Source of the DNA: a virus
Direction: 5' to 3' (one strand)
IMG/VR virus record: IMGVR_UViG_3300042922_000542
Coordinates: 1-64,000 of that record
Length of the DNA stretch: 64,000 nucleotides
Shown: positions 46,671 through 49,472 of the stretch, in pieces
How positions within the stretch are numbered: position 1 is the stretch's first letter
Layout of the letters: every line of letters begins with the position of its first letter
The notes under the pieces: generated by a model
Databases searched by the model: none
What the model was told of the DNA's origin: nothing
The model's input: the letters and a program-made list of their open reading frames with translations, nothing else
Program-made: the position numbers and the translations under genes

Positions 46671-49472
46671 CTATATATCTTCTATAATAGTATCTAGATT
46701 TAAATTTCCAACATTTACTGTTTGTACGTGCTTTGCTTTTAGATTTAGATTTAAGTCTGAATATGCCAGTTGTGAAACCAATAAACCTAAATATCTAGTA
46801 TCTAATTTATAGAATAGCGTTCCCGCACATTTACTACAGATCTTTTTATTGGTGCATACCATCGGTGATCTAAAATTTAACACCTTGCCAACATACCCAT
46901 TGACATTTTCGGATGTTAACATCTTTAATTGATCACCCTCAATGAAATATGAATCAACTAATTCTTTTTTGTTTCTACTACTTACAGTAATAGGTATACT
47001 TCTCTTTGTGCCGCAATCAGTACCAGGATCATCAACTTCAATCATTTGTAATAACGCAAGGAGCTGTTTACCCATATAGCCGGCACTAGCAGTTGCAATT
47101 GCACTTGGGTACGCACCAGATACTATCGAGTTTGCATGTGCTGGTATATCTTTAACATTTATACCATTCATAAAACTTGTTTCGATAAAGTCAAATTCAT
47201 TGGTAATCTTATTTAATACTGGACCTTTTAGTATAGAATTGTTTTTATAGTTATTAGCAAAATCAAGATCACCAGATAGGTATAAATCCATTCCTGGATC
47301 ATCCTTCAATATTTCCCTAGCATATGCAACTAACTCTTTCTCAATCCTATTCATTATCACAATATTTTTATCAGCGATTTCTTTTTCATATTGTTTATAT
47401 AATTCAGCTTTTCGTTTTTCAATCTCTGGTAATGGTTTAGCCATACGAATAGAAATAGTATGTGCTAACATTCCGTTTAACCAGTAACCTAAATTATCTC
47501 TTCGATTTGTATAATCATCAAACTGGGCTCTATTTATTTTATCATTCATATATAGTTGACCTATTAGTTGATCAGTAAATGATAAACCCGATTTACCCAT
47601 CTCTATATCAATAAATTTAGTTTCTGATATAACCCCAGATCCATGTAATATATACCTATTGAATATGAATCTACCCAATGTTGTAGTAAATTCACCATGA
47701 CCATCATAAAAATAATTTGCTGGCACGATCATAGTATCCCAAGTGTTATATCTAGATTGTCTTTTTACTGTATTTTTAGTATGAGATATATCTGCCGTAT
47801 CAGAAACAATATCAGCAATAAATGTACGTGTATAATCACCAACTGGTGTTTTCAGATATACATCGGTATCATATGCATTTACTTTCTTAGAATTAATTCT
47901 AATTTTAGTAAGTTCATAATATGAATTGTAAACCTCTTTAGAAACTACACGTATATTAGAACCCGTAACAGTTAATGCCGATAATTTTCTATTCATTATA
48001 ACTTCGGCTTCTCTATTAGCTTCATCTGTCCATAAACCTCTAACAGAACATTGGTCACCATCGTAGTCAGCACCTTGTCCTTCGAGATTGGAGTTTGAGT
48101 ATACCAATGTATCTATAAATTGTACACCGACCTTATCAGGATCAGTATTCATATCAATATGTGGATAGAATCGATACTCAACTCCATTGAAAATAACGTG
48201 ATCGTGTGTCTTGGTAGATTGCACTCGAACCTTATTAAAAAATAAACCTTTGTCCGTTCCAACCGGATAACGACTAATCATTATATGTCGCTTTTCACAT
48301 ACATCAACACATGCTAAATATAAAATGTCTGTAATTGTTAAAGGTCTTTTCAAATCACTATGATTATTACCAATGATTTGTTTTCCCTTTAATACCATCA
48401 TAACTTTAATCGCATCTTTTTTAGCATTTGGAGATATAGCTTCTACTATAATTGGTTTAAATCTATTATCTGGATTACGTACATAATCCAAAATCATTTT
48501 CTTAACAACCTTTTCTGAAAATTGCAATTCTGGATTTTTTAATGAAATTGAAACTTCCTTTTGCTTTTCAGGATCATAATACCTTACTAAATTTGCATCA
48601 TTAATAATTTCTCTAGTAAAAAAATTCTTGACCCATGATTCTACAAATGGATAGAACGCAGCGCAGCATTGGGCGATTGGTAATGCAGCATGATTAATGT
48701 CGACCATATTATCTTCTAATCGTTCATTATTGTAAGTAGGTGCAGATATAACTGAACGGGTTCCATATGTAATATTTTTACCCATAAGATACCGTTTTAT
48801 CATTCCATACTTACCCCTTATACGATCTTTGAAATAATTATAAACTTCACCTAATGTCTCTTGTATTCTTGCCTGGGTTGTATACTGCCTTCTTGCAAAA
48901 ATACCTCCCTCTGACAATAGACCAACCATTCTAATGATTGCGGTATAATGTTTATTTAATTGATTAATACGGTCAGAATTATCATCATCGGTTGATACAA
49001 ATACGTCCCTATAGAATGGAGGACATATAACGAGTCTTGTTATAAATATATCATCTTTATTAGTATTCTTTAAAAATGTTAATGATCTTTCATTTGATGA
49101 TGCTGATTTACTCCAATCTATTTCATCCCAATGGTCATATAATTGATGTAGTCCAGTCCATCCATTTTCATTATCTTCAACCAACATGCTATCCTTGATA
49201 CTATAACGTCTGGTTCCAGAGACAATATATATTACACCTTTAAACAATCTTTTTAAGAATGCTTCATACACATGTGGGTGGATAAATGGATTTTTTAAAT
49301 CAATATAAGCATATGTTCCCAATCTGTCACTTTTGCTTATACCAAATATTTCATTTGATAATACGCCCCCTGGATCAAATAATCCTTTATTCGAAAATAA
49401 TCTTGGAGATGTACATTCCTGAATTGCATTTACTTGAATAAATCTATTTACATCTAACAATTCCAGTTTCAT
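46671..49472 (-). CDS. multisubunit-type RNA polymerase beta-prime-like catalytic protein (YonO-like or jumbo-phage-like)
   Basis: GADYDGDQ (Asp triad at nt 48054-48068) matches NADFDGD. KRYLMGKNITYGTRSVISAP (48738-48794) matches the beta-prime [14 protein letters not shown] motif. N-terminal IFG...GYIDLKNPFIHPH matches IFGP...GHIELAAPVAHIW. Start taken at Met44 (AAAGGAG upstream, ATG 49472). Confidence 0.8.
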   Translation of the reverse strand: MKLELLDVNRFIQVNAIQECTSPRLFSNKGLFDPGGVLSNEIFGISKSDRLGTYAYIDLKNPFIHPHVYEAFLKRLFKGVIYIVSGTRRYSIKDSMLVEDNENGWTGLHQLYDHWDEIDWSKSASSNERSLTFLKNTNKDDIFITRLVICPPFYRDVFVSTDDDNSDRINQLNKHYTAIIRMVGLLSEGGIFARRQYTTQARIQETLGEVYNYFKDRIRGKYGMIKRYLMGKNITYGTRSVISAPTYNNERLEDNMVDINHAALPIAQCCAAFYPFVESWVKNFFTREIINDANLVRYYDPEKQKEVSISLKNPELQFSEKVVKKMILDYVRNPDNRFKPIIVEAISPNAKKDAIKVMMVLKGKQIIGNNHSDLKRPLTITDILYLACVDVCEKRHIMISRYPVGTDKGLFFNKVRVQSTKTHDHVIFNGVEYRFYPHIDMNTDPDKVGVQFIDTLVYSNSNLEGQGADYDGDQCSVRGLWTDEANREAEVIMNRKLSALTVTGSNIRVVSKEVYNSYYELTKIRINSKKVNAYDTDVYLKTPVGDYTRTFIADIVSDTADISHTKNTVKRQSRYNTWDTMIVPANYFYDGHGEFTTTLGRFIFNRYILHGSGVISETKFIDIEMGKSGLSFTDQLIGQLYMNDKINRAQFDDYTNRRDNLGYWLNGMLAHTISIRMAKPLPEIEKRKAELYKQYEKEIADKNIVIMNRIEKELVAYAREILKDDPGMDLYLSGDLDFANNYKNNSILKGPVLNKITNEFDFIETSFMNGINVKDIPAHANSIVSGAYPSAIATASAGYMGKQLLALLQMIEVDDPGTDCGTKRSIPITVSSRNKKELVDSYFIEGDQLKMLTSENVNGYVGKVLNFRSPMVCTNKKICSKCAGTLFYKLDTRYLGLLVSQLAYSDLNLNLKAKHVQTVNVGNLNLDTIIEDI

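Follow-up and report, generated by a model that had tools for sequence, protein, structure and literature searches.

The question raised by the stretch of viral DNA considered here (positions 1 to 64,000 of record IMGVR_UViG_3300042922_000542; hereafter the window, its 64 kb being 26% of the 246,147-bp contig of this virus) is what kind of RNA polymerase (RNAP) is represented by a single gene at 46671-49472, the product of which resembles the bacterial beta-prime subunit. An earlier note on this DNA, made by a model from the sequence, described a stand-alone protein without a beta-like partner, which might be a single-polypeptide enzyme like YonO of prophage SPbeta, or one piece of a split polymerase. 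The available evidence is that the gene very probably codes for the catalytic, beta-prime-like subunit of a virion RNAP (vRNAP) of the jumbo-phage type, in which the N- and C-terminal portions of the beta-prime subunit are joined head to tail in a single chain. The second of the two suggestions was thus right in that the protein is an orthologue of a multisubunit beta-prime, but not in that it is a split piece, since two of the usual subunits are present in one unsplit chain. That feature, and the relationship to the virion rather than the non-virion set of subunits, are the points which the earlier note missed.

Orthology, motifs and fold of the protein

Two PHROG families of jumbo-phage RNA polymerase match the protein, i.e. 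phrog_2986 over residues 1-519 (1.9e-79) and phrog_2962 over residues 568-930 (2e-60). The same division is seen with phage AR9, of which g145 matches residues 1-404 and 472-523 (32% identity, 1e-59) and g264 matches residues 563-931 (34% identity, 9e-58); both were annotated by the AR9 authors as virion RNAP subunits, g264 also being assigned to TIGR02386 (rpoC). The AR9 non-virion RNAP (nvRNAP) subunits compare poorly, with beta-prime C (g154) scoring 5e-07 only and beta-prime N (g270) giving no match at 1e-3. The far stronger matches to g145 and g264 than to g154 and g270 argue that the protein is an orthologue of the virion polymerase beta-prime. On the minus strand, the N part (residues 1-523; 47904-49472), as delimited by tblastn, AR9 g145 and the family profile, comprises the clamp/lid region and the double-psi beta-barrel, and the C part (residues 563-933; 46674-47786), as delimited by AR9 g264 and phrog_2962, is a separate virion subunit in split phages. 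The two parts are colinear and without a linker, g145 ending opposite residue ~525 and g264 starting at ~528.

When the protein was compared by tblastn with 50,697 phage records (E ≤ 1e-5), 308 records, nearly all of jumbo phages, were matched. With the phages of Listeria, Bacillus, Staphylococcus and Yersinia and with phiKZ-like phages, the match extends no further than residue 523/524 and each genome is matched in two places; the matches to LPJP1, the Staphylococcus phages and phiR1-37 span residues 1-523. The only phage records matched in one piece, over 99% of the length, are those of the Fusobacterium phages JD-Fnp1, 4, 6 and 7. The gene can thus be named with confidence as a virion RNAP beta-prime with its N and C parts in one chain, and the contig is thereby flagged as that of an RNAP-encoding jumbo phage, probably independent of host transcription.

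These comparisons also bear on whether the protein might instead be the beta-prime of a non-virion (late) polymerase, or of the only polymerase of the phage, and not be packaged in the capsid. Such an assignment could accommodate an unsplit architecture that departs from all characterised vRNAPs, a virion location assigned only by analogy and an upstream region without the AR9 early-promoter core (discussed below), though a late-made virion protein would lack that motif too. It is nonetheless improbable, because, for each half, the match to the AR9 virion subunits is better by 50 orders of magnitude than that to their non-virion counterparts, because gp14 of JD-Fnp1 scores 1e-81 versus 0.011 for its nvRNAP piece gp153, and because the gene sits amid virion-structure genes.

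The motifs picked out in the earlier note were all found where it had placed them, i.e. IFG at residues 42-44, GTYAYIDLKNPFIHPH at 52-67, KRYLMGKNITYGTRSVISAP at 226-245, MISRYPV at 398-404 and GADYDGDQ at 467-474, though the stretch that it read as GYIDLK is actually AYIDLK. The Mg-binding Asp triad, D469-Y-D471-G-D473 (DYDGD), is encoded at 48054-48068 (minus strand), exactly as had been claimed. The note had taken a failure of this loop to align in profile searches as a refutation; the loop does align with the NADFDGD catalytic loop of beta-prime, at the end of Pfam PF00623, by phmmer and in the family profile. In phmmer comparisons with PDB chains, FKDRIRGKYGMIKRYLMGKNITYGTRSVIS and the lid-region motif ...KRYLMGKNITYGTRSVIS align with bacterial beta-prime, GADYDGDQ aligns with NADFDGDQ, the bridge-helix region (residues 764-810) aligns with GARKGLADTALKTA(D/N)SGYLTRRLVDV of bacterial beta-prime, and TDCGT plus VCTNKKICSKCAG align with the bacterial TDCGT plus TCESKKGVCAKCYG (pattern TDCGT...CxxxxxCxxC).

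Three of the parts involved lie in the C-terminal region, all on the minus strand. The bridge helix, supported by that phmmer alignment and by a long helix in the predicted structure, is assigned to residues 773-808 (47049-47156). A Cys4 site (C820, C873, C879 and C882; residues 820-882, 46827-47015) matches the second zinc site of bacterial beta-prime, and from its pattern would be expected to bind zinc. The first trigger-loop helix is assigned to residues 895-915 (46728-46790), with helix H895-912 in the model, and includes LGLLVSQLAYSDLNLNLKAKH, which we take to resemble the trigger-loop sequence of bacterial beta-prime; the protein ends 18 residues on. The remaining Cys residues of the 933 are at positions 20, 150, 269, 270, 388, 392 and 475. 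There is no Cys within residues 21-149, and an N-terminal zinc ribbon was not found there, in agreement with the earlier description of a clamp region lacking zinc-ribbon cysteines. A match of the protein to Pfam Phage_RpbA (E 0.024) was dismissed as noise.

Compared with cellular beta-prime, the protein thus lacks the N-terminal zinc ribbon and everything past the first trigger-loop helix, i.e. the second trigger-loop helix and region H. The absence of these regions, which amount to the ribbon and the C-terminal quarter of the cellular subunit, could be taken to mean that the gene is a polymerase relic, decayed or without catalytic function, a proposal that is scarcely credible. The same truncations are normal for jumbo-phage vRNAP beta-prime subunits (PMC7598289); at the C terminus this is so because the extreme C-terminal part is a separate small virion protein, as with SPN3US gp244 (PMC7598289). 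Further, 307 homologues are known, and in 64 of them (54-76% identical) D469, D471, G472 and D473, the RYP motif, the bridge helix and the four zinc-site Cys residues are invariant, as are K912, K914 and H915. The invariance of the catalytic and zinc-site residues implies selection for enzymatic function in this gene.

The predicted fold bears on the proposal that the protein is a YonO-like single-polypeptide RNA polymerase, working without a beta-like partner. The earlier note had suggested asking whether one or two double-psi barrels are present; the AlphaFold (AF2) model of the 933-residue protein (pLDDT, predicted local distance difference test, 81.9; pTM, predicted template modelling score, 0.69) has one, of beta-prime type, with strands around residues 355-479. 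A second, Lys-bearing barrel of beta type, or other beta motifs, were not found in the protein (E = 3.9 with a hidden Markov model (HMM) of virion beta subunits). Against the PDB, the top 50 structure matches of the model are all beta-prime chains, which align along their whole length, with ~1,100 aligned columns, E values down to 6e-28 and a best identity to bacterial beta-prime chains of 13-16%; against a viral library, phage beta-prime pieces and giant-virus Rpb1 are matched. The profile of the 64-sequence family likewise finds only beta-prime chains in the PDB, the best being chain d of 7S00/7S01, the beta-prime N subunit of the AR9 nvRNAP (6e-17), with Bacillus subtilis beta-prime aligning over residues 466-887. 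The model also folds the junction of the N and C parts (residues ~523-563) well, with pLDDT values of 70-94.

The YonO-like proposal gains from the monocistronic nature of the gene and from the lack of any beta-like open reading frame (ORF) in 64 kb. Against it are the single beta-prime-type barrel, the absence of any beta or YonO-like chain among the top 50 structure matches, the identity of all the sequence-family matches as multisubunit beta-prime pieces and the presence, in relatives of the same architecture, of a distant virion beta gene; the window is, in addition, only about a quarter of the contig. Nine of the 308 matched phage records are from Bacillus, and eight of these are AR9/PBS1-type, with no SPbeta-type record among the matches listed. 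Similarity to YonO or SPbeta-type proteins was seen neither in the tblastn matches listed nor in PHROG, no direct pairwise comparison with YonO being made. A YonO-like enzyme is therefore very unlikely, and this alternative of the earlier note can be set aside in favour of the vRNAP beta-prime.

Transcription unit, beta partner and proposed mechanism

The ORF, which is on the minus strand and which the earlier note had correctly delimited, encodes 933 residues followed by a stop codon. A longer reading of 976 residues from an ATG at 49601 was rejected on three grounds: the first residue of the 933-residue form is where alignments with homologues and phrog_2986 start, a ribosome-binding site AAAGGAG (49484-49490, minus strand) sits 11 nt 5' of the ATG at 49472, and the additional coding sequence would span the hairpin upstream. 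That hairpin, between the upstream gene (49616-50077) and the beta-prime gene, is terminator-like (49541-49576, minus strand) and has a 16-bp stem with a predicted RNA folding energy of -27.0 kcal/mol. A second, 5 nt past the beta-prime stop codon (46633-46666, minus strand), has a 15-bp stem (-24.8 kcal/mol), and would be a terminator-like end of the transcription unit. Both hairpins had been reported before, and are real and strong. With its own ribosome-binding site and hairpins on both sides the gene is probably monocistronic, forming its own transcription unit. Comparable hairpins with G+C cores occur between genes at many other places in the window, so they appear to be a genome-wide habit and not peculiar to the beta-prime gene.

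The observation that no ORF of the window has beta signatures was borne out: a beta-like ORF was found neither by tblastn of all six-frame ORFs against AR9, nor by tblastn with the JD-Fnp1 RNAP proteins, nor in PHROG scans of 49 ORFs, and an HMM of 16 virion beta subunits gave a best E of 0.07 with the 178 six-frame ORFs of at least 60 residues. An ORF at 32356-32802 (plus strand, 149 residues) was considered as a beta piece and rejected, its 14.5-bit phmmer match being judged probable noise; the match is to a non-catalytic helical part (residues 419-486) of g089, the non-virion beta C subunit of AR9, and the ORF has no PHROG match. The conclusion of a stand-alone protein without partner did not hold, since the window represents only 26% of the contig and the two genes are far apart in relatives; the missing partner is thus an effect of the window.

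The distance between beta-prime and beta is 60-135 kb in the relatives where both genes were located, and 80-135 kb in those with an unsplit beta-prime, the virion beta of which has 1,480-1,650 residues. JD-Fnp1 encodes an unsplit beta-prime (gp14, 930 residues, at 14.8 kb) and, 80 kb away, a virion beta (gp95, 1,484 residues, at 94.3 kb), as well as separate non-virion pieces (gp72, gp99 and gp153). In IMGVR_UViG_3300011980_000002 (223,032 bp) a 934-residue unsplit beta-prime at 167.6-172.4 kb is accompanied by a 1,649-residue virion beta at 27.9-34.9 kb, and in IMGVR_UViG_3300008575_000010 (210,162 bp) the unsplit beta-prime is at 117.4-122.2 kb and the virion beta at 200.8-207.8 kb. Split beta-prime N and virion beta are paired on at least six other contigs. 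A one-chain virion beta of ~1,400 residues is encoded by LPJP1, Staphylococcus phage S6 and phiR1-37, that of phiR1-37 (g099) being annotated as 'phage structural protein'. The beta partner of the present protein would almost certainly be encoded in the remaining three quarters of the genome.

Wider searches gave 19 matches in the protein database from a four-sequence beta alignment, and 1,190 beta-like representatives from a full HMMER scan. Two associations were rejected. Beta P0173 was considered as the partner of beta-prime P0032/P0033, but its contig has 27% GC as against the 42-46% GC of their ~290-kb contigs, so the two are from different phages; beta clade B was considered as a marker of unsplit phages, but a contig of the 'Herbinix' metagenome-assembled genome (MAG) pairs a split beta-prime N with beta P0158. 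A distant relative (L013; IMGVR_UViG_3300033149_003257, 10001-17085; 23% identity) has the beta-like gene directly downstream of the beta-prime-like one, the two being scattered elsewhere.

Several points weigh against assignment of the gene to a vRNAP. The split after the barrel that defines the family is missing, there being one uninterrupted 933-residue ORF; this is an architectural difference and not an argument against orthology. Virion packaging of the protein is transferred from the AR9 annotation and so can only be presumed. No beta-like gene was seen for this phage within the window, the beta gene of the closest relatives (beta-prime 54-76% identical) was not located in scans of IMG/VR, JGI and the protein database, and a search for GLPRV-type motifs found no small subunit with the extreme C terminus of beta-prime in the window.

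If the assignment is correct, a mechanism can be proposed that is based on the biology of AR9, phiKZ and SPN3US (PMC7598289). The beta-prime would assemble with a large (~1,400-1,650-residue) virion beta-like subunit (or subunits) around a two-barrel active centre, and with small subunits that supply the extreme C termini of both beta-prime and beta; the genes for all these partners would lie elsewhere in the genome of 246 kb. The beta-prime would be a late product that is packaged in the capsid and enters the cell together with the DNA, and the enzyme would then transcribe early genes from short AT-rich promoters without the host RNA polymerase. By the same analogy, it is reasonable to propose that transcription by this phage may be independent of host RNAP.

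The distribution of promoter-like sequences is of interest in this regard. The early-promoter core TATATATTAT, taken from the annotated promoters of AR9, occurs 15 times in the window versus 6.5 +/- 3.0 expected, a marginal enrichment in that 2 of 100 shuffles reach 15 copies. Copies at 46551-46560 and 46618-46627 (minus strand) and at 41707, 53113 and 35451 (plus strand) include ones upstream of the genes at 45787-46461, 41755-44079 and 53150-54577, two of them lying just past the beta-prime terminator and upstream of the next gene; these copies are candidate vRNAP promoters. The region upstream of beta-prime has no TATATATTAT, and has a different AT-rich palindrome, GTATTATATAATAC. The pattern is compatible with, and weak evidence for, early promoters read by the vRNAP together with a beta-prime that is a late virion gene. 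A 150-nt block at 54624-54773 consists of overlapping AT-only palindromes with several copies of TATATATTAT in both orientations, and may represent a group of promoters or an origin of replication.

A helicase of superfamily 2 (SF2; ResIII/DEAD) is encoded at 53150-54577 on the plus strand (phrog_16, 1.6e-37; AR9 g156, 4e-44). It is 3.7 kb from beta-prime here, and is conserved 6 kb from beta-prime in relatives. Helicases of this class are reported to accompany the genes for RNAPs and to be virion-packaged (PMC7824862, PMC10299810), so that the protein is a probable functional associate of phage RNAPs.

Spread and evolution of the unsplit form

The split of beta-prime after the barrel has been described as general in jumbo-phage RNAPs, and the split site as common to vRNAPs, nvRNAPs and cyanobacteria, with hypotheses on the origin of the phage enzymes being built on it (PMC7598289, PMC7824862). 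No mention of an unsplit form was found in the literature searched, and the published description of the JD-Fnp phages is without mention of an RNA polymerase. The unsplit beta-prime is the one unusual point, representing a new architectural form of a well-known enzyme family.

It is not confined to the present contig. A metagenomic homologue search gave 307 protein clusters and, among the 120 matches listed, almost all are of 922-960 residues; IMG/VR has full-length ORFs of 929-938 residues that are 36-59% identical to the protein. The clade, which like the present phage is uncultivated, comprises hundreds of protein clusters at 90% identity, on contigs of up to ~290 kb. One contig of a relative is binned in a 'Roseburia sp.' MAG, which is weak evidence as to host.

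When N halves were compared in a neighbour-joining tree with 100 bootstrap replicates, the family of this gene and a group at 46% identity formed a clade (99/100), which two unsplit contigs at 36% identity joined in 54/100 replicates and JD-Fnp1 in only 5/100. The unsplit state thus either arose at least twice or is ancestral, a tree as crude as this one not discriminating between the two. It may be that the unsplit beta-prime of this clade and of the Fusobacterium phages is the ancestral vRNAP state, with the split common to vRNAPs, nvRNAPs and cyanobacteria arising repeatedly and not by inheritance, or that this clade has re-fused two genes, a tentative and rather doubtful pair of proposals. 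If the unsplit state is ancestral, the ideas of a polymerase acquired from cyanobacteria and of a primordial multi-piece polymerase would be undercut; if it results from re-fusion, the split would be freely reversible and there would be no functional constraint from packaging or injection. With a well-populated clade, and cultured Fusobacterium phages, without the break, such origin scenarios are testable by a proper phylogeny. No vRNAP had been purified as of a 2020 review (PMC7598289), and a form that needs one subunit less might be simpler to reconstitute.

A different type of interruption is seen in some relatives (L183, L185-L187, L193, L229 and L012), the beta-prime genes of which are interrupted by 0.37-1.5 kb at the GMGADYDGD codons. 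At the only junction inspected, that of L187, the gene is broken precisely at GMG|ADYDGD, its second part is without a start codon and the frame in which homology picks up again is a different one; the L185 insertion holds a 303-residue ORF on the opposite strand. The insertions are probably self-splicing introns at the catalytic site, as in AR9 g145, and not gene splits. Comparison with Rfam, including the group I models, found no family reaching its gathering score for these insertions.

Neighbouring genes and known systems

Of the genes near beta-prime, that directly after it (45787-46461, minus strand) encodes 224 residues and has the same position in L012, L045 and L051 (38-43% identity); no PHROG match and no beta-prime C-terminal motif were found for it. 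A 2,055-residue ORF at 57782-63949 (minus strand), without a PHROG match, is conserved beside the beta-prime neighbourhood in L007-L012 (25-40% identity) and would presumably be a very large protein of the virion or for ejection.

Further away, at 11916-21224 (minus strand), three extremely Cys-rich proteins adjoin four radical-SAM ORFs. The former are encoded at 11916-13181 (421 residues, of which 78, or 18.5%, are Cys), 13215-14870 (551 residues, the C-terminal half having most of the 52 Cys) and 18795-19217 (ending in CDxC repeats); the latter are at 14916-16727, 16826-17662, 17662-18783 and 19890-21224 (phrog_1802), with a fifth at 36018-36764. The region looks like a phage-borne cluster for peptide or protein cross-linking, similar to those for RiPPs (ribosomally synthesised and post-translationally modified peptides), and its presence accounts for a G+C bump at 12-14 kb.

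One of the closest known systems is the AR9 vRNAP, g145 and g264 being homologous to, and colinear with, the whole protein at 32-34% identity, with the same catalytic motifs. The likeness extends to the lack of an N-terminal zinc ribbon, to an end after the first trigger-loop helix and to a location far from the beta gene. By contrast, the two AR9 parts are encoded by separate genes ~100 kb apart, and g145 has introns, whereas here there is one uninterrupted ORF. AR9 has deoxyuridine DNA, and its late polymerase reads deoxyuridine in promoters; the present phage has genes for thymidylate synthase, dihydrofolate reductase and dUTPase (24757-26080 and 33744-34340), and its DNA, unlike that of AR9, probably contains thymine.

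JD-Fnp1 gp14 and its counterparts in JD-Fnp4, 6 and 7 share the unsplit form, of 930 residues, and these are the only cultured phages found to have it. The difference is one of distance, gp14, which is annotated as 'RNA polymerase subunit alpha', being only 25-26% identical and branching apart from the clade of this gene in the N-half tree.

Cyanobacterial and plastid RNAPs have a divided beta-prime, consisting of gamma (RpoC1) and beta-prime (RpoC2). The cyanobacterial split site coincides with the jumbo-phage one after the barrel (PMC7598289), and the phage N part is named 'rpoC1/gamma' in some database annotations; the present protein is unsplit there. A further difference is that the family of this phage enzyme is without known alpha or omega partners. 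YonO of prophage SPbeta is, similarly, a phage-encoded RNA polymerase of the two-barrel superfamily with a DxDGD motif. In YonO, however, both barrels are in one chain (PMC7824862), whereas the 933-residue protein has one barrel and is a true orthologue of beta-prime.

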